Source: Planctomycetota bacterium (GTDB lineage: Bacteria > Planctomycetota > MHYJ01 > WSZJ01). From it: a DNA stretch of 64,000 bases. The notes beneath the pieces were generated by a model. The model made no database searches. It was not told where the DNA came from and worked only from the letters and a program-made list of their open reading frames with translations. The position numbers and the translations under genes were made by a program. Location of the stretch: assembly GCA_009773755.1 (NCBI GenBank), contig WSZJ01000037.1, forward strand, positions 11,903 through 75,902. Direction: 5' to 3'. This document shows, one piece after another, positions 37,697 through 44,008 of this stretch (position 1 is its first letter; every line of letters starts with the position of its first letter).

Positions 37697-39709
37697 CTAT
37701 CGCTCAACGGACGCCTTCGCGATGCGGTCCCCGACCTCGATCGCGCGCACCACGTCCATGCCGCTCTCCAGCCGCGCGAATACCGTGTACCTGCCGTCGA
37801 GATGCGGCGCAGGCGCGCTCATGATGAACAACTGGCAACTGCCGGTGTCCTTGCCGGAGGTCGCCATCCCGACCGCGCCCGCGTCGAACGGCTCGCGCGA
37901 CCACTCGTCTCGCACCGTGAATCCCGCGTCGCCCGTGCCGTCTCCCTTCGGGTCGCCGCCCTGGATGACGAAGTTCGGCACTACCCGGTGCCACGTTTTC
38001 CCGTCGTAGAAGCCGCTCCTCACGAGACGGACGAACGACGACGCCATCGCGGGCGCAGCGCCCGGCAGCATCCGGATCCGGATCACGCCGCGCGTCGTCT
38101 CCAGCTTCACGATCATCGAGAAGCCGATCTCCTCCAGCCTGGTCGGTTCAATCGCCGCGGGAGGCGGCGCCGGCGCCGCTTCCGCGGATTCGTTGCTCGC
38201 CTTCAGAGTTTTCACGGCCTGGGCTCTCACCGCCGGCACGTCGTCCTTCGTCGCCTCGAAGGCCAGCGACCGTCCGCGCTTCGCCTTCTCGAACCACATC
38301 AGCACCGCCATCCGCGGGTCCACCATGTCCTTCCCGCCGCTGGCGCGGTACGCCTTCTCGAGCGCGGCGTCCCACGAGGCGTCCTCCTCCCTCCCCGCAA
38401 GCGCCCCCACGGCCGCTTCACGCACCCCCGCATCCGGGACGTCCAGCGCCGACTTCACGTAGCCGTCCCAGTCCGCGTGCAGCTGCGGGTGCCGCTTGTG
38501 GTGGTCCGCGATCTCGGCCATCAGCTGCACCTGGAGCGCCCTCTCGTTTCCGAGCATCACGCGTTCGAGTTCGCCGTGCGCCTTCGAGGTGCCGATCGCC
38601 ACGAGCGCCCTAACGGCCGCCCGGCGCGACATCGCGTCCCCGGATTTCAGCGCGGTCATTGACTCGTCGAAAGCCTCCATCCCGTGCCTGAATGCCTTCG
38701 CCCACAGCGCCACCCCGCGTACCGTCACGCTCGGGTGCCGCAGCGCCGCCTTGATCGTGCCGGGCGTCGCTTCGCCGCGCATCCCGAGAATCTCGAGCGC
38801 CCGGGCGATCGTCACGGACTCGCCGCCCGACGCCGCCTTGTTCAACGCTTCGCTCACTTCCCCGCTCACGCACTTTTCCAGCGCATTCACGCCCTCCCAG
38901 GCCACCCGTGGATCCGAGTCTCCCGCCGAACGGATCAGCGTCTTTTCCGCGGCCCGGGTCTTCTTTTCCTGCTCGGGATCCACGATCCGGCCCAGCGCCC
39001 GCGTCGCGAACGCCCGCACCAGCGCCTCCTGGTCGACCGTCGCTGCTTCGATCTCCGCCCGGAGCGGCGAAGCGTCAACTCTCGAGAGTCCGCACGCTGT
39101 CCGCCAGCGGGCTGCGTCATCGGGGTCGTGGAGAAGCGGCTTGAGCGCGAGCACGGCGTCCTTCAGCTTCGATTTGTCCTCATCGCTTTCCGCCCTCGCC
39201 GCCATGCGTGCGACGGCCATCCCGAGCTCACCCCGGACGCGCGCACTCGCGTCCCGCGCCATGCCCGCCGCCAGCCCGAGGTCCCCGGGTCGGCCAAGGC
39301 GACTCAGCGCCTGGATCGCCAGCGCGCGCACCTCCGGCTCGGGGCTCTTCAGCGCCGGTCGAAGAGGCTCCGCAATCGCCGGGTCGCCGATCAGCCCGAG
39401 CGCGAAGGCCGCGTCCTCGACCACTTTTGTTTCGGGGTCGCGGAGAAGCGCCGCGACGGCACTGACGGATTTCGGGTCGCCGATGCGGCCGAGCGCGAGG
39501 AGCGCGCGGCGGCGGACGGTTTCGTTTTCGTGTGAAAGGAAGGGTTCGACAAGTGCGCCCGGCGCGCGTGTGTCCTCGAGGCGCTGGATGTCGGCGATGT
39601 CCTGGGCGATGGTGCGCTCCGGTGGGTTTTCGTCGACGGGCTTTTCGGAAGAGCCGCAGCCGGCGGTGAGGATGGCGAGCGAGGCGAGGAGGGCGCGGGT
39701 TCGGTTCAT
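37697..39709 (-). CDS. HEAT-repeat lipoprotein with C-terminal cyclophilin-type PPIase
   Basis: Lipobox TAGC; HEAT repeats; GFYDGKTWHRVVPNFVIQGGDP, APHLDGRYTVF. Confidence 0.9.
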   Translation of the reverse strand: MNRTRALLASLAILTAGCGSSEKPVDENPPERTIAQDIADIQRLEDTRAPGALVEPFLSHENETVRRRALLALGRIGDPKSVSAVAALLRDPETKVVEDAAFALGLIGDPAIAEPLRPALKSPEPEVRALAIQALSRLGRPGDLGLAAGMARDASARVRGELGMAVARMAARAESDEDKSKLKDAVLALKPLLHDPDDAARWRTACGLSRVDASPLRAEIEAATVDQEALVRAFATRALGRIVDPEQEKKTRAAEKTLIRSAGDSDPRVAWEGVNALEKCVSGEVSEALNKAASGGESVTIARALEILGMRGEATPGTIKAALRHPSVTVRGVALWAKAFRHGMEAFDESMTALKSGDAMSRRAAVRALVAIGTSKAHGELERVMLGNERALQVQLMAEIADHHKRHPQLHADWDGYVKSALDVPDAGVREAAVGALAGREEDASWDAALEKAYRASGGKDMVDPRMAVLMWFEKAKRGRSLAFEATKDDVPAVRAQAVKTLKASNESAEAAPAPPPAAIEPTRLEEIGFSMIVKLETTRGVIRIRMLPGAAPAMASSFVRLVRSGFYDGKTWHRVVPNFVIQGGDPKGDGTGDAGFTVRDEWSREPFDAGAVGMATSGKDTGSCQLFIMSAPAPHLDGRYTVFARLESGMDVVRAIEVGDRIAKASVER

Positions 39710-39770
39710 GTCCGGAGAGTACAAAAGCGTGCGCCCGCCGGGCACGGATTAGGAACCGCCGGAAGTGCTT

Positions 39771-39880
39771 GTACGCAGATGAAAGTGGATCTTGCAGAAA
39801 CGTCGGCAGATACGGCGACCTTCACCGAACGGCCGGCCGTATCTGCCGACGTTTCTGCAGAATCCGCCTTATCTGCGTAC
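39771..39880. repeat. Palindromic intergenic element
   Basis: 24-bp perfect inverted repeat 39793-39816/39836-39859, extended imperfectly to GTACGCAGAT/ATCTGCGTAC ends. Confidence 0.85.
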
Positions 39881-39891
39881 GCCGTTTTTCT

Positions 39892-41610
39892 TCAGGCGAC
39901 GCACGCCGGACCGGAGCAATCGCCCTTCGCCATCGCCTGCCCCGCGCGGCAACCGTCGCGGTAGACGGTGATTCCCTTGCAGCCGGCCTCCCAGGCCGCG
40001 CGGAATGCCTCCGCCACCTGCGGCCGCGTCGCCTCTTTCGGGAAATTCACCGTCTTCGAAACGGCGCTGTCGACATGCCGCTGGAACGCCGCCTGCATGC
40101 GGACGTGCCAGGACGGCGCGATGTCCGCGGCCGTTGCGAACGCGCGCCGGATCCGCTCGGGGACCGCTTCGCAGCCGCGCACGCCGCCCGTCTTCTTCAC
40201 GTGCGCCCACACCTCCGGCCGGTCGAACCCGCCTTCGCGCGCCAGCCGCGCGAACTCCGGGTGCGCTTCCGGCAGGACTTCCCCGTCCAGCACGTGCCGG
40301 TTGAAGGCGAGGGCGAAGAGCGGCTCGATGCCGCCGCTGGTGCCGGCGAGGATCGAGAGCGTGCCGGTCGGGGCCACGGTCGAGACGGTCGCGTTGCGGA
40401 TCGGATAGCCGGAACCGCGCGCGTGGATCGACTCGGGGTAGTTCGGGAACGGGCCGCGCTCGCGGGCGAGCTGCTGAGAAGCCGCGCGCGCCGCGCGGGA
40501 AAAAGCGGCCATCGTGCGGTCGGCGAGCGCGATCGCCTCTTCCGAGTCGTACGGCACGCCCAGCAGGACAAGCGCGTCCGCCCAGCCCATGATGCCGAGG
40601 CCGATTTTGCGGTTGGCGCGCGTCAGCCGCTCAATCGCCGGCAACGGATACCGGTTGCGCTCGAGGACGTCGTCGAGGAAGCGGACCGAATCGGCGACGA
40701 CCTGTTCGAGGCGGGCGAGATCGAAGCCGGAGGGTTTGACGAAGCGCGCGAGGTTGATGGAGCCGAGCGTGCAGGCCTCGTTCGGAAGAAGCGGCTGCTC
40801 CCCACACGGATTAGTCGCCTCGATCGCGCCGAGGCCGGGAGTCGGGTTGTCGCGCTCGATGCGGTCGCGGAAGAGGATGCCGGGCTCGCCGGAGTCGTGG
40901 GCTTCCTCGACGAGCGCTTCGAAGAGCTTGTCGGCGCGAATGTGTTTCGCGACAAGGCGGGTGCGCGGGCTGACGAGCGCCCACGGCTCGCCGGCCGCGG
41001 CCTTGCGCATGAAGTCGTCTGTGACGAGAACGGAGACGTTGAAGTTCGACAGCTCGCCGCGGTCGCGCTTGGCGCGCACGAATTCCTCGACGTCCGGATG
41101 GTCGGCCGCCAGCACCGCCATGTTCGCGCCGCGCCGGAACCCGCCCTGGTTGATCGCGTTCGTCGCCGCGTTGAACACGCGGATGAACGACACCGGCCCG
41201 CTCGCCGCGCCCTGCGACGTCGCGACGCGGTCGCCTTTCGGCCGCAGCCGCGAAAACGAAAACCCGGTCCCGCCGCCGGACTTGTGGATGAGCGCGGACG
41301 CCCGCAGCGTGCCGAAAATCGAATCGATCGAATCTTCGACCGGCAGAACAAAGCACGCCGCGAGCTGCTGCAACTCGCGCCCCGCGTTCATCAGCGTCGG
41401 CGAATTCGGCAGGAAATCCCCTTCCATCATCAACTCGTGGAAGCGGCGCACCCACGGACGCGGCGAGTTGCCGAACGCCGCTTCCGCAGAAGCAATGTCG
41501 GTCGCGACGCGCAGGAAGAGCGCCTCGGGGGATTCGGCGGCGCGGCCGTTGGAATCCTTGAGGAGGTAGCGTTTTTCGAGAACGGCGCGGGCGTTGGCGG
41601 TCAGGGGCAT
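39892..41610 (-). CDS. nrdJ: Class II (adenosylcobalamin-dependent) ribonucleotide reductase
   Basis: FLPNSPTLMNAG, QLAACFV, GGGTG, RRGANM, TNPCGEQ, APTGT, KGITVYRDG. Confidence 0.93.
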   Translation of the reverse strand: MPLTANARAVLEKRYLLKDSNGRAAESPEALFLRVATDIASAEAAFGNSPRPWVRRFHELMMEGDFLPNSPTLMNAGRELQQLAACFVLPVEDSIDSIFGTLRASALIHKSGGGTGFSFSRLRPKGDRVATSQGAASGPVSFIRVFNAATNAINQGGFRRGANMAVLAADHPDVEEFVRAKRDRGELSNFNVSVLVTDDFMRKAAAGEPWALVSPRTRLVAKHIRADKLFEALVEEAHDSGEPGILFRDRIERDNPTPGLGAIEATNPCGEQPLLPNEACTLGSINLARFVKPSGFDLARLEQVVADSVRFLDDVLERNRYPLPAIERLTRANRKIGLGIMGWADALVLLGVPYDSEEAIALADRTMAAFSRAARAASQQLARERGPFPNYPESIHARGSGYPIRNATVSTVAPTGTLSILAGTSGGIEPLFALAFNRHVLDGEVLPEAHPEFARLAREGGFDRPEVWAHVKKTGGVRGCEAVPERIRRAFATAADIAPSWHVRMQAAFQRHVDSAVSKTVNFPKEATRPQVAEAFRAAWEAGCKGITVYRDGCRAGQAMAKGDCSGPACVA

Positions 41611-41634
41611 GTGGTTTCTCCGAAGGCGAACATA

Positions 41635-41662
41635 ATACTAACATGGAATTCGGCTCCGTCAA
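41635..41662 (-). promoter_or_regulatory. Putative sigma-70 promoter for nrdJ
   Basis: Minus strand TTGACG-N16-TAGTAT with TGn extended -10. Confidence 0.45.
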
Positions 41663-41748
41663 TCCCCTTCCGGAAATTACTGCCGGTAATTCCCGAACTT
41701 CGCGCCAGAATCGCGCGTCTTACCGGTACGCCCACTACGGAGCCCCGC

Positions 41749-42663
41749 ATGCGCTTCCCCGCGATCGTCCTCGCCTTCGTCGTCGCCGCTCTCCCCGTCC
41801 TCGCCGACCCACCCACCGAGCAGGACGTCCGCGGCTGGATCGCGCAGCTTTCCGACGACGATTCCGTGAAGCGCGACGAGGCGCAGCGGCGCATCGAGTC
41901 GCTCGACATCGCGTGGAAGAAAACGCTTCAGGATTCTCTCGCGGCGTCGACCGACGCCGAGGCGCGCGCGCGGCTCACCGAAATCCTGGCGAAAATAGGC
42001 CGCATCCAGTGGATAACAGACGTCACCGCCGCGGTCGCGAAGGCGCGCGCGGAAAAGAAGCCACTTCTCGTCATGGCCACCCCTGGCGCTCCCGACAGCT
42101 TCTCGTGACTCGGCGGCCACCTCATGCGAACCGTGACGTTCGCGGATGCCGACCTGTGCGCGTGGATGAACCGGACGTTCGTCCTCGCGTGGTACGACAT
42201 CAAGCCGGAAGCCACCGCCGCGGGCCTCGGCGCGCTTCAGCCCACCTACTCCAGGGAAGAAATCGCCGCCTACCCCGAGGGCGGCGGCGGCACGAACGTC
42301 CGCGCGGTCTTCTGCTCCCCTGAGGGAATCGTCCGCCACGCGACCCAGGGCTGGTGGCCCGCCGGCCGCTTCCGGGAGGAATGCGAGCGCGGCCTGGCGT
42401 GCGCCGGGGCGAAGTCGCTCGACGCGGCGAAGGATCTGCGGGCGAGGGGCGCGGACGAGCTGATCAAGGCGGCAAACGAGCTGGCCGCTGCGAATCCTGA
42501 AGAAATGAGGCGGCCCGTGCGCGAGTCCGCCGTCGCCCGGCGCGTCGCGGCGCTTCGGTTGCGCGCGACGACCTACGCTCAGATGGAAGGAGCGATCGGG
42601 CAGGAAGCGGTGATCGTGCTGGGAGACTGGGAGGAGGAGGCCGAGGGGCGGATCATGAAGTGA
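41749..42663 (+). CDS. Putative secreted selenoprotein (SelN-like thioredoxin fold), in-frame TGA at 42106-42108
   Basis: Signal peptide; ORF continues in frame across TGA (KPLLVMATPGAPDSFS*LGGHLMRTVTFAD); downstream hairpin. Confidence 0.75.
42126..42143 (+). promoter_or_regulatory. Candidate bacterial SECIS hairpin
   Basis: GCGAAC-CGTGAC-GTTCGC after a 17-nt spacer from the TGA. Confidence 0.65.
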
Positions 42664-42733
42664 GGGTAGTGAGGCGAACCCGGTCAGGGTTCAACGGAAA
42701 GTTCGGAGACGGGAGTCGGGAGACAATCCGGGA

Positions 42734-43291
42734 ATGCGGTGTTCCTTTGTGTTGCTGGCGTTGTCCGCCTGCGGGTGCGCTTCGGCGCCGCCGGCTGCGT
42801 TTTCTCTGAGCAACGACGCCGCTCGCGAACTCGCGAAGAAAGAGCGCAAACCGCTCCTCGTGCTCTCCGTCGTCGGCGACCTCGATGGCAGGTTGTGACT
42901 CGCAGCGCACGTCCTGAGAGCCGTGACGCTCTCGGATCCAGGAGTGAAGCGCTTGATCGAAGAGAACTGGGTTTCCACCTGGCACAACCAGTGCCCGGGT
43001 CTCTACTGCAACAACACGGCCGACACGCGAAAGCCGATTCCCTACCCATCGGAGCAGTTTGACACCGTGTATGAAGGCGTCGGCGGCGGGAACATCCGGC
43101 TGTTTTTCTGCGACAAAGATGGACGCATCATTTACGCCGTCACGGGGTACCTTTCGATCTCCTCGATGATGGACGCAGAGAGGTTCGCGCAATACCTCCT
43201 GCCCCTGGGCGAGCGCCACAGGAAGATCGCATGCGAGATGGAAGCCACGTCTGGCAGGTCCTCCGTGAAATCGAGGACAACATCTATCTGA
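42734..43291 (+). CDS. Putative selenoprotein lipoprotein (SelN-like), in-frame TGA at 42896-42898; C-terminus possibly frameshifted
   Basis: Lipobox-like LSACGC; KPLLVLSVVGDLDGRL*LAAHVLRAVTLSD; shares EGxGGxN(V/I)RxxFCxxxG with the paralog. Confidence 0.72.
42916..42933 (+). promoter_or_regulatory. Candidate bacterial SECIS hairpin
   Basis: GAGAGC-CGTGAC-GCTCTC after a 17-nt spacer from the TGA; two compensatory pairs versus the first copy. Confidence 0.65.
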
Positions 43292-43378
43292 AGGGCGCGA
43301 TCGGCTGAGACAGCGAATGAGCGGCGGTGCGCCGCATTCAGCGCGACAGCCCCAGACAGCCCTGCTATAACCGCATCC

Positions 43379-44008
43379 ATGACGCGCGCGGTCGATAAGT
43401 CCGGCGACTGGAAGAATCGCCTCTATAACCTCGGGTTCGAACTCTTCAATTCAGGCAAGCGCTTTGAGGCGCACGAGGAGTGGGAAGCGATCTGGCTGGA
43501 CGAGCCTAAGGGGCACCCGAACCGGCTGTTTCTGCAGGGACTGATCCAGGTCGCGGCGGCGTTTCACCGGGTGGACACGAATTTTCTGCGCGCGGCTTAC
43601 CGGCTGTTTCGATCTTCGCGGCGAAAGCTGATCCCTTACTCGCCCGGGTACAAGGGCGTCAACGTCGCTTCGCTCATTCCGCTTCTCGAAACCTGGATCG
43701 ATCGCCTGGGCTCGCTGAATCGCGGCGACGCGCCTTCGCACGCCGACTATTTCCCGATGGCGCTCGGCGGGCGCGGCTGGAACGAGGCGACGCGCGAGCC
43801 GGACGCTTCGCCTGAGGGACTGTCGACGTTCAAGGCGTTCGAGGAGTATTCGAGCGACCGGGAGGTGCGGTCCGTCTGCCCGAAATGCGGCGACGCGCTG
43901 GCCGTGAACGGCCGGCGGCGGGCGCCTGCCGAAGACGTCGAGAGCGTCTGGCGGGTCGCCTGCCCTCGCGGCTGCGTCGAGCGCGCGTTCGCGGGAGCCG
44001 GCGCGTGA
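43379..44008 (+). CDS. DUF309-family protein with C-terminal Zn-ribbon-like extension
   Basis: LFNSGKRFEAHEEWEAIW...LQGLIQVAAAFH; CPKC...CPRGC. Confidence 0.8.
   Translation: MTRAVDKSGDWKNRLYNLGFELFNSGKRFEAHEEWEAIWLDEPKGHPNRLFLQGLIQVAAAFHRVDTNFLRAAYRLFRSSRRKLIPYSPGYKGVNVASLIPLLETWIDRLGSLNRGDAPSHADYFPMALGGRGWNEATREPDASPEGLSTFKAFEEYSSDREVRSVCPKCGDALAVNGRRRAPAEDVESVWRVACPRGCVERAFAGAGA

Follow-up and report, generated by a model that had tools for sequence, protein, structure and literature searches.

In the window (the whole stretch of 64,000 nucleotides analysed, from a Planctomycetota bacterium), two tandem genes very probably encode exported thioredoxin-fold selenoproteins, which belong to a large unannotated family of Planctomycetota and Verrucomicrobiota and in which an internal UGA is decoded as selenocysteine (Sec) with the aid of a SECIS hairpin. 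Judging from sequence comparison, the two products are likely to function as periplasmic single-selenol oxidoreductases, one soluble and the other a lipoprotein. The earlier note on this DNA had proposed that both are true selenoprotein genes with Sec at an active-site position, and the conservation of the TGA, the presence of the Sec machinery and the existence of Cys forms all support that proposal. The positions of the two genes and of their parts are listed in Table 1.

Table 1. Predicted features of the two tandem selenoprotein genes (positions are those of the window)
Feature	Position	Strand	Description	Basis
Gene 1	41749..42663	+	304 aa, exported thioredoxin-fold selenoprotein (predicted)	Translation with TGA=U
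Putative Sec-type signal peptide, gene 1	41749..41805	+	MRFPAIVLAFVVAALPVLA	By-eye reading
UGA codon, gene 1	42106-42108	+	Predicted Sec, residue U120	
Predicted SECIS hairpin, gene 1	42126..42143	+	GCGAAC-CGUGAC-GUUCGC, +21 to +38 from U of UGA	
Gene 2	42734..43291	+	185 aa, shorter paralogue, probable lipoprotein	Translation, BLASTP to gene 1
Putative lipobox, gene 2	42761..42772	+	L-S-A-C, residues 10-13	By-eye reading
UGA codon, gene 2	42896-42898	+	Predicted Sec, residue U55	
Predicted SECIS hairpin, gene 2	42916..42933	+	GAGAGC-CGUGAC-GCUCUC	

The read-through products of genes 1 and 2 shared 31% identity over 106 residues (BLASTP, E 2e-15), and the two TGAs align with each other because this alignment is gap-free around the TGA column. 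The in-frame continuation past both TGAs, the peptides on either side, the exact alignment of the TGAs and a later shared motif, EG(G/V)GG(T/G)N(V/I)R..FC, were all found as the earlier note had described them. Its claim of export also agrees with the by-eye readings, by which both products look exported: the predicted signal peptide of gene 1 is followed by D, and the lipobox site of gene 2 reads LAGC, IGGC or LFGC in orthologues. In gene 1 a helical N-terminal region (approximately residues 20-85) precedes the Sec domain. ORF calling with table 11 broke both genes into the pieces that had been predicted, namely 42124-42663 (179 aa), 42734-42898 (54 aa) and 42923-43291 (122 aa), the N-terminal part of gene 1 being swallowed by a long spurious ORF (39769-42108). 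The database copies of gene 1 are C-terminal pieces of 172-181 aa, and full-length orthologues, with identities of 83%, 69% and 40%, each carry one internal TGA. The second gene directly follows the first also at loci L016-L021.

At the Sec column, TGA was found in 35 of 36 homologous domains (30 loci in other Planctomycetota genomes) and Cys in the remaining one. Each of the TGA domains, which come from distant genera, carries exactly one stop at this column, always TGA and never TAA or TAG, and protein similarity and reading frame run on across it. This pattern of conservation is far beyond chance. Among 83 DNA-pattern matches in other genomes, 72 were family members with the same TGA. The residue at the Sec column was examined in the best 149 database representatives: 114 begin right after the column, and the residues there in the remaining 35 are C (16), S (12), A (3), W (2), P (1) and T (1). 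Full-length relatives with Cys, such as P0018, are therefore on record, and Cys was also found in L044 and L051. Homologues with TGA or Cys at this column, for which the earlier note had advised a search, thus exist in both forms. Its concern that the column might hold arbitrary residues does not apply to the 36 domains, and applies in part to some diverged paralogues with Ser, Thr or Ala; since those with Ser or Thr occur in the same genus, the scaffold is put to a non-redox use as well, which counts against the main reading.

The source genome carries genes for selA (544 bits), selB (311 bits), selD (370 bits) and tRNA-Sec (selC, 71.9 bits), all over the cut-off, and the lack of Sec machinery that had been named as an argument against the proposal is therefore not the case. 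Among the 69 genomes with listed TGA members, selA was detected in 66 and the other three have selB over the cut-off (tables compared by eye). As a separate observation, selD of the source genome itself includes one TGA.

When the family profile was compared with the PDB, it matched chain 3ira_A (E 0.0019, 65 residues) with Sec placed on the first Cys of CHWC. The in-frame UGA is aligned, in other words, with the nucleophilic Cys that opens an active site of the CxxC type. The Pfam models Thioredoxin_7 and DsbH each gave a weak match to 10 of 35 members (best E 2.5e-5), with scores of 17.2 and 18.3 bits for gene 1 and 13.7 bits for gene 2 against an unmet gathering cut-off of 27 bits. All Pfam and PDB thioredoxin-fold matches stayed below curated cut-offs, and because the sequence matches are weak, the thioredoxin fold of the family is given here as a prediction. 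The comparison with thioredoxin-fold families that the earlier note had advised gave Thioredoxin_7 and DUF255 as the nearest relatives, at a distant level below the cut-off. The family motif is G-x-L-D-x-x-L-U-(S/L/M)-(A/G)-(G/A)-H. The position of the second Cys of CxxC is occupied by Gly or Ala throughout the family (U-L-G-G and U-L-A-A in the window genes), and an Arg at U+7 is invariant and the motifs W-x-N and G-x-G-G-x-N are conserved. As the earlier note had pointed out, the window genes have S-U and L-U (F-S-U-L and R-L-U-L) where SelN has its defining C-U.

An addition to this explanation, not a replacement of it, takes up the label 'SelN-like' of the earlier note: the family would be truly homologous to the thioredoxin-like domain of animal selenoprotein N (SelN, SELENON), its members acting as SelN-like periplasmic reductases that repair over-oxidised cysteines of membrane proteins; we regard this as a tentative but serious possibility. 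Somewhat more doubtful is the wider proposal that the catalytic domain of SelN has its prokaryotic counterpart in this family; SelN would then have descended from, or share its origin with, an exported selenoprotein of Planctomycetota and Verrucomicrobiota. What makes the link a good lead is the pattern G-x-L-D-x-x-x-C-U of sister subfamilies, as in G-D-L-D-K-E-G-C-U (L047 of the same genome), and C-U is also found in F-C-U-A-N of Verrucomicrobiota; around Sec these subfamilies read G-C-U-A and F-C-U-A. The SelN stretch, as given in the earlier note, fits the gap-free spacing G-x-L-D-x-x-x-C-U-x-x-G-x-x-L-R. According to the accessible parts of three papers (PMC12839072, PMC7474598, PMC8967691), Sec of SelN belongs to an SCUG motif, and the predicted thioredoxin domain around it is on the luminal side of the ER, which corresponds topologically to the periplasm. 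The mRNA of SEPN1 has a stem-loop (SRE) immediately downstream of the UGA, again as described in the part of the source available (PMC8967691); if the wider proposal holds, this element could even be a remnant of an in-frame SECIS like that of the bacterial genes.

Against homology to SelN stand several observations. The window genes have S-U and L-U instead of C-U, an EF-hand was absent from the Pfam scan at E<=1, and a type II membrane anchor was not seen by eye. SelN did not appear among the 8 matches that a 39-sequence alignment gave in a database search for longer proteins, all of them unnamed or 'hypothetical', nor among the best 120 of 5576 matches to a 478-aa Cys-type relative, again all unnamed or 'hypothetical'. 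The short motif match, moreover, may be convergent among thioredoxin folds. A SelN chain was not found in the PDB by protein or profile search; SEPN1 was without a solved three-dimensional structure in 2020, and the same source leaves bacteria unmentioned in the part consulted (PMC7474598). The six-letter SelN motif was not found in literature text, and bacterial or prokaryotic homologues of SelN were not mentioned among the literature matches listed. SelN is an enzyme of unclear substrates and chemistry, the loss of which causes human myopathy; if the link is true, bacterial sequences become available as SelN models by the thousand, Cys, Ser and double-Sec variants among them, and open an experimental route to its mechanism.

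Bacterial SECIS elements are stem-loops located close downstream of the UGA with a G in the apical loop. The hairpin of the window genes fits in both location and form: a stem of 6 bp, which lies 20 nt behind the UGA within the coding sequence, carries the loop CGUGAC. Between the two genes the offset and the loop are identical, and two base pairs are altered on both sides of the stem. In the homologues, too, the hairpin keeps this offset behind every internal TGA. The six core pairs were formed in 204 of 204 cells (34 distinct sequences), and both-sided, compensatory change was observed in three of the six, the pair types at the varying positions being AU (25) and CG (9); GC (19), AU (14) and GU (1); and CG (32), GC (1) and UA (1). 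In an 8-pair test the covariation was 0.357 against 0.179 for shuffles, none of 500 reaching the observed value, and <=0.119 for slid partners. The minimum free energy of two 70-nt stretches was not lower than that of shuffles (z +1.10 and -0.54), so that the case for the hairpin is built on comparison and not on energy. Within 41600-43400, no relevant Rfam family was found at E<=10.

The hairpin lies within the most conserved stretch of peptide, and it might be regarded as a by-product of the sequence R-(A/T)-V-T-(L/F)-(S/A), with read-through, if any, taking place by near-cognate Trp or Cys insertion or by another route. The unremarkable folding energy and the W at the Sec column of two database proteins agree with such a view, which is nevertheless very improbable; the two W are most simply explained by translation of TGA as Trp by a pipeline. 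Synonymous positions are constrained in the direction that pairing requires. Arg at U+7 is encoded by AGA (20), AGG (6), CGA (6) or CGG (3) and never by CGC or CGT, although these two account for 220 of 379 Arg codons in the rest of the domains. GTG encodes Val at U+9 in 30 of 32 cases (background 108/333), and ACG encodes Thr at U+10 in 29 of 31 (background 92/236). This Thr codon tracks codon U+8, its third base changing with the second base there: ACG occurs with C, ACC with G (L020) and ACA with U (L023). The first base of the Arg codon covaries with the residues three to four codons further on, which are either L-S or F-A, CGA going with Phe-Ala and AGA with Leu-Ser. The Sec machinery is also present in all 69 carrier genomes examined. 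RNA pairing thus seems to drive the choice of amino acids in the hairpin region, and the predicted SECIS, at a fixed offset and with a fixed loop, offers a clean example of an RNA signal within a protein-coding sequence.

That the internal TGAs are ordinary stops, leaving four small genes or two pseudogenes with the similarity across the TGA as a relic, agrees with the public annotation (14 of 14 matches are separate C-terminal pieces, 'hypothetical protein' where named) and with the use of TGA as the real terminal stop of both genes (42661, 43289), but is scarcely credible and is already contradicted by the comparative data, namely the persistence of similarity and frame behind a single TGA at a single column, the full-length Cys homologues in databases, the conserved hairpin with compensatory changes, and the C-terminal pieces themselves, which alone would be devoid of export signal and active site.

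In the library searched, the family forms 2370 clusters when grouped at 50% identity; it is distributed in Planctomycetota and Verrucomicrobiota, and is represented by at least three members in one genome. A member (L113) was also found in the complete genome of Ca. Uabimicrobium amorphum. No model of Pfam-A or NCBIfam 20.0 gave a match over its cut-off, and none of the 119 families of prokaryotic selenoproteins in the tables of a 2026 review, in the part accessible, was recognised as this one. A description of the family was not found in the literature covered, including passages of PMC4807772, PMC5029168, PMC12013277 and PMC13188914; Table S9 of PMC4807772, for selenoprotein candidates of two planctomycetes, and the supplementary tables of PMC5029168 and PMC12013277 could include it. 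Gene callers split the members of this large and so far unnamed family of presumed exported redox proteins into two pieces. Its genes are annotated as truncated 'hypothetical' proteins in many genomes of Planctomycetota and Verrucomicrobiota, and the selenoproteomes of both phyla are therefore under-counted.

For the selenoproteins proposed here, a working scheme can be drawn. SelB-GTP-Sec-tRNA would bind the hairpin and insert Sec at the internal UGA, and the terminal TGAs, which are not followed by such a hairpin, would stop translation. After export, the product of gene 1 would be free in the periplasm and that of gene 2 anchored by lipid. The single selenolate, in an active site presumably shaped by the invariant Arg and the W-x-N and G-x-G-G-x-N motifs, would attack a substrate of the cell envelope, either an oxidised sulfur or a peroxide. 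Since a second active-site Cys is missing from most members (U-x-x-G/A), it would take an outside thiol to resolve the selenenylsulfide or selenenic acid so formed; in sister subfamilies this part may be played by the neighbouring Cys of C-U or by an N-terminal C-C or C-U tail. The neighbours in the window are all housekeeping genes (class II ribonucleotide reductase, HEAT-cyclophilin, DUF309, thioesterase, AccA and PurL) and gave no clue to the substrate. Clustering of neighbours at 110 loci yielded mostly antisense ORF artefacts, together with one real neighbour in another subfamily.

Among known systems, the Thioredoxin_7 (PF13899) and Thioredox_DsbH/DUF255 (PF03190) domains, as represented by 3ira_A, share with the family the K-P-(L/I/V) strand in front of Sec or the first Cys. 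The family differs from them in the absence of a CxxC pair, Sec standing for the first Cys and Gly or Ala for the second, and in the additional G-x-G-G-x-N motif and the invariant Arg. The bacterial VPGUxxT proteins of types 1 and 2 (NF041382, NF041383; 'OS_HP5') are likewise thioredoxin-like and have no second active-site Cys (U-x-x-T). Theirs is the only curated selenoprotein model touched by more than one member (5 of 35 at E<=0.01, best 6.6e-5), but gene 1 reached 14.3 bits against the 275-bit cut-off of NF041383, in residues 83-109 in front of Sec, and the family has its own motif in place of VPGU. The start of the motif of TsoA (LULAxC, NF045695) is resembled by L-U-L-A-A-H of gene 2; assignment of gene 2 to TsoA was rejected, since NF045695 did not match at E<=1 and His replaces the Cys of LULAxC. 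In the source genome NF045695 gave no match, and the control was also without a match anywhere.

Exported thioredoxin folds are also found in DsbD gamma (E 0.36-0.47 for its chains in the PDB profile search) and in the TlpA/DsbE reductases, including Sec forms annotated as 'thiol:disulfide interchange protein' or 'UGC-containing TlpA family'. These proteins, which act on envelope proteins, each have a pair of redox residues (CxxC, UxxC or UGC) and depend on DsbD/CcdA for recharging, whereas most members of the family have a single Sec, and a DsbD/CcdA-type partner gene does not adjoin the pair in the window. As far as the accessible parts of the sources go (PMC12839072, PMC7474598, PMC8967691), the family resembles SelN in the extracytoplasmic location of a predicted thioredoxin domain with Sec, in the C-U of the sister subfamilies and in a stem-loop right after the UGA. 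SelN, a type II glycoprotein of the ER membrane, has an EF-hand and the SCUG motif, the latter as given in PMC12839072. Its SECIS is located in the 3'-UTR, while the window proteins differ in their predicted signal peptide or lipobox, in S-U and L-U, and in an in-frame SECIS of the bacterial type.

The two genes of the tandem pair each continued in frame past one internal TGA, which was read as Sec (U; U+n and U-n are residues after and before it). The read-through proteins of gene 1 and gene 2 were 31% identical over 106 residues (BLASTP, E 2e-15), with both TGAs in the same column of the alignment, as the earlier note had claimed, and standard ORF calling yielded only fragments, the splitting that the note had also described. 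Judged by eye, the N-terminus of gene 1 would be a Sec-type signal peptide and that of gene 2 a lipobox, L-S-A-C, in place of which the gene 2 orthologues have LAGC, IGGC or LFGC; export of both proteins is predicted from these signals.

Positions of the gene pair and of related loci (in the window unless a locus, L, or the source genome, G000, is named)
Feature	Position	Strand	Remarks
Gene 1	41749-42663	+	ATG 41749, TGA stop 42661-42663; 304 residues read through
Internal in-frame TGA, gene 1	42106-42108	+	single interruption
Hairpin, gene 1	42126-42143	+	GCGAAC-CGUGAC-GUUCGC
Gene 2	42734-43291	+	ATG 42734, TGA stop 43289-43291; 185 residues read through
Internal in-frame TGA, gene 2	42896-42898	+	single interruption
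Hairpin, gene 2	42916-42933	+	GAGAGC-CGUGAC-GCUCUC
HEAT-repeat/cyclophilin-type fusion	37697-39745	-	two genes upstream of the pair
Paralogue L045	G000:C244:17400-19300		Ser at Sec column
Paralogue L046	G000:C100:10900-12350		Thr at Sec column
Third member L047	G000:C222:1100-2700		TGA at locus 521 and 671
selD (L010)	G000:C224:32024-35950		TGA at locus 1531
Cys-type subfamily	L044:1114-2547	+
Cys-type subfamily	L051:234-1463	+
FHA-domain neighbour	L066:1882-3375	-
FHA-domain neighbour	L089:5230-6717	+
FHA-domain neighbour	L097:1142-3217	-
FHA-domain neighbour	L111:2509-4659	-
FHA-domain neighbour	L116:4917-6689	-
FHA-domain neighbour	L054:3453-6182	-

The order of a long secreted form followed by a short lipoprotein form was found in the window and at L016-L021, that is, at seven of the eight loci L015-L022, the second gene of L022 being only a partial match without TGA. 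The TGA-to-TGA distance within pairs was 695-827 nt. Since this order recurs in genomes from the genus, the order and the class of G000 and from other families of its phylum, the duplication is judged to be old, with both forms kept together. The neighbouring genes are housekeeping genes and give no pointer to the substrate. Two genes upstream, HEAT repeats (PF13646, E 1.3e-33) are unusually fused to a cyclophilin-type prolyl isomerase at the C-terminal end (PF00160, E 4.9e-35); by eye, gene 1 too looked HEAT-like in its N-terminal region.

When read-through gene 1 was compared with all six frames of 401 Planctomycetota genomes, matches were identified in 104, and nearly all those spanning the active-site region contained exactly one TGA. 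Among 36 homologous domains cut from the 30 loci listed by this search, the Sec column was TGA in 35 and Cys in one. The consensus was K-P-L-x-V-x-x-x-x-G-D-L-D-G-x-L-U-(S/L/M)-(A/G)-(G/A)-H-x-(L/M)-R-(A/T)-V-T-(L/F)-(S/A)-D, and the invariant residues were Gly at U-7, Sec, Arg at U+7, Gly and Asn of a later G-x-G-G-x-N, and one further Gly. Public protein databases hold the family mostly as C-terminal pieces: all 14 near-length matches to gene 1 were of 172-181 aa, covered 54-59% of the query and were named, where a name was given, hypothetical protein. Against 1.84 billion representatives, the family profile matched 2370 clusters at E<=0.001, 1082 of them at E<=1e-10. Among the 149 best representatives, 114 begin directly after the Sec column and 35 span it, with Cys (16), Ser (12), Ala (3), Trp (2), Pro (1) or Thr (1). 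Close relatives of gene 1 are among the Cys forms (P0018), and an identity look-up of ten full-length forms gave entries that were nameless or "hypothetical protein". The Trp of P0023 and P0024 (...G-Y-T-W-S-A-G-N-S-L-R-A-V-T-L...) is most likely a TGA rendered as Trp by a pipeline.

G000 and its genus also have full-length, stop-free paralogues of gene 1, all lacking G-G-x-N. The residue at their Sec column is Ser in L045 and L048-L050 and Thr in L046, and these proteins are probably copies of the same scaffold without redox activity. A very large Cys-type subfamily of about 470 aa (L044, L051) carries ...S-C-A-N-S-R-F-F-R-T-V-L-Y-A-N... preceded by Tyr (Y-S-C-A-N), and a long C-terminal extension; 5576 clusters matched at E<=0.001 among 8000 candidates scored, of which the best 120, from Planctomycetota and Pedosphaera, were nameless or "hypothetical" and had no Pfam domain. 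Arbitrary residues at the Sec column had been named as counting against a selenoprotein; the column is not arbitrary, Sec or Cys going, as far as these sequences tell, with retained active-site motifs; drifted forms show Ser, Thr or Ala. A third member in G000, L047 (V-G-D-L-D-K-E-G-C-U-A-A-G), seems to hold two Sec, as does L062. Behind the first TGA of L047 lies, at +18 to +36, the hairpin GAAACCC-UGGCA-GGGCUUC, and its counterpart in L062 has a perfect 7-bp stem. In the U-S-A-G-H-S-L-R-A-V-T-L-S subfamily, an FHA-domain gene (PF00498, E 5e-16 to 7e-8) lies directly upstream on the same strand, these neighbours forming two related groups of 13-14 loci each; such a gene is absent beside the pair in the window.

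A hairpin was present at +21 to +38 (U of UGA = 1) in all 35 Sec members, which had been picked by protein similarity, not RNA. Between gene 1 and gene 2, loop and offset were identical and two pairs were altered on both sides. In the 35-sequence DNA alignment, the six core pairs were formed in 204 of 204 cells with different pair types (AU 25 / CG 9; GC 19 / AU 14 / GU 1; CG 32 / GC 1 / UA 1). The covariation score of the 8-pair version, with its two weak outer pairs (16/34 and 20/34 paired), was 0.357 versus 0.179 for shuffles (0/500 reached 0.357) and at most 0.119 with slid partners. Because the hairpin lies in the coding stretch of the most conserved peptide, synonymous sites were examined. 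Arg at U+7 was encoded by AGA (20), AGG (6), CGA (6) or CGG (3) and by CGC or CGT in none of 35, against backgrounds in the same domains of 220/379 for CGC plus CGT and 13/379 for AGA; Thr at U+10 was ACG in 29 of 31 (background 92/236) and Val at U+9 GTG in 30 of 32 (108/333). In both sequences with a Thr codon other than ACG, the partner base suited the codon: G for ACC (L020) and U for ACA (L023). With synonymous codons skewed and partner bases matching, the hairpin RNA is under selection in its own right. Base 1 of the Arg codon pairs with base 2 of the Ser/Ala codon at U+12, so that F-A accompanies CGA and L-S accompanies AGA; the RNA stem thus appears to dictate an amino-acid covariation in the protein, F-A versus L-S at U+11/U+12 (42106-42145 and 42896-42935; alignment A3). 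The loop 23 nt after UGA and the G at its second position fit the bacterial SECIS rules. Points against this are that single-sequence folds had no stability advantage over shuffles (z +1.10 and -0.54), Rfam gave no match to the hairpin region, and the family hairpin was not behind the terminal TGA of either gene.

The Sec machinery that such genes call for was present in G000 (5.78 Mb, 302 contigs, 88% complete), with selA (544 bits), selB (311 bits), selD (370 bits) and tRNA-Sec (71.9 bits) all above the curated cut-offs, and UGA is decodable as Sec in this genome. The selD is itself a selenoprotein gene with one in-frame TGA (...S-C-A-G-U-A-S-K...) and a hairpin, GGGUCC-GGC-GGACCU, 13 nt after UGA, its loop unlike that of the family hairpin. 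selA was found in 290 of the 401 sampled Planctomycetota genomes and, on comparison of the tables by eye with 27 rows of the six-frame search outside the count, in 66 of the 69 genomes for which a TGA-bearing member was listed. The three carriers without selA are 67-84% complete; selB was above cut-off in all three and tRNA-Sec above the gathering score in two.

A DNA-pattern scan (UGA, 17 free bases, hairpin) of bacteria and archaea, each species represented by a single genome, gave at least 119 stretches. Among the matches listed (83 in 80 loci), the profile assigned 72 to the family (E<1e-5), and 11 were chance matches in other GC-rich genomes. The members among these listed matches were mostly from Planctomycetota MAGs, and also from Verrucomicrobiales, Akkermansiaceae and Roseibacillus (together six loci, L-F-G-K-L-D-E-E-F-C-U-A-N-G), Ca. 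Uabimicrobium amorphum and one MAG labelled Rokuibacteriota; the scan, biased to one hairpin type, therefore shows presence, not proportions.

Weak Pfam, NCBIfam and PDB matches point to a thioredoxin fold, in which the lone Sec would be the nucleophile. Pfam matches were sub-threshold only (gene 1, 17.2 and 18.3 bits for Thioredoxin_7 and DsbH/DUF255, cut-off 27), each model being matched by 10 of 35 members at E<=0.01, and NCBIfam 20.0 gave only weak matches, to VPGUxxT selenoprotein models (5/35 members, best 6.6e-5, cut-off 275 bits). In the PDB, the family profile matched 3ira_A, a DUF255-type domain (E 0.0019), followed by DsbD gamma domains (E about 0.4). Sec aligns with the first Cys of the C-H-W-C of 3ira_A, and the family has Gly or Ala in place of the second.

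From the anatomy of UGA and hairpin and from the gene set, SelB with Sec-tRNA would bind the in-frame hairpin and deliver Sec at UGA. Once exported, the selenolate could attack an oxidised substrate (disulfide, sulfenic acid or peroxide, for example), and the resulting selenenylsulfide or selenenic acid would be resolved by another thiol, since a second Cys is not universally conserved. Some subfamilies have Cys immediately before Sec (C-U); the G-C-U-A-A-G subfamily holds an additional pair shortly after the signal peptide, C-C in homologues from six other loci and C-U in L047; this pair resembles a mobile tail that would do the resolving. Arg, invariant at U+7, and a frequent W-x-N are candidates for activation of the selenol, on the model of peroxiredoxins and glutathione peroxidases.

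The table of a 2026 review covers 119 families of prokaryotic selenoproteins and gives their model accessions; no family with a matching motif was found in the part available (PMC13188914), and none of its NCBIfam/Pfam models came up to cut-off on these proteins. TsoA (LULAxC), the sole motif look-alike, was rejected, its model giving no match. No description was found in the accessible portions of the literature on Planctomycetes selenoproteins and bacterial relatives of selenoprotein N (SelN), nor any mention in those of PMC4807772, PMC5029168, PMC12013277 and PMC7474598; supplementary tables, outside this scope, could hold one. The family is filed as a new one among the well-known thioredoxin-fold bacterial selenoproteins.

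The earlier note had proposed animal SelN as a relative. The G-x-L-D-x-x-x-C-U spacing of the sister subfamilies presumably occurs also in SelN, in the stretch which that note quoted. In the sections available, SelN is described as a type II ER membrane protein with an EF-hand and with Sec in an SCUG motif of a predicted thioredoxin domain facing the lumen (PMC12839072, PMC7474598, PMC8967691), with no solved structure as of 2020 (PMC7474598), and its mRNA as having a stem-loop (SRE) just downstream of UGA (PMC8967691). Homology of the family to SelN is a tentative reading, somewhat on the doubtful side. An extracytoplasmic setting, predicted for the proteins in the window, and Sec in a thioredoxin-type site are common to both, and the sister subfamilies share with SelN the C-U pair.
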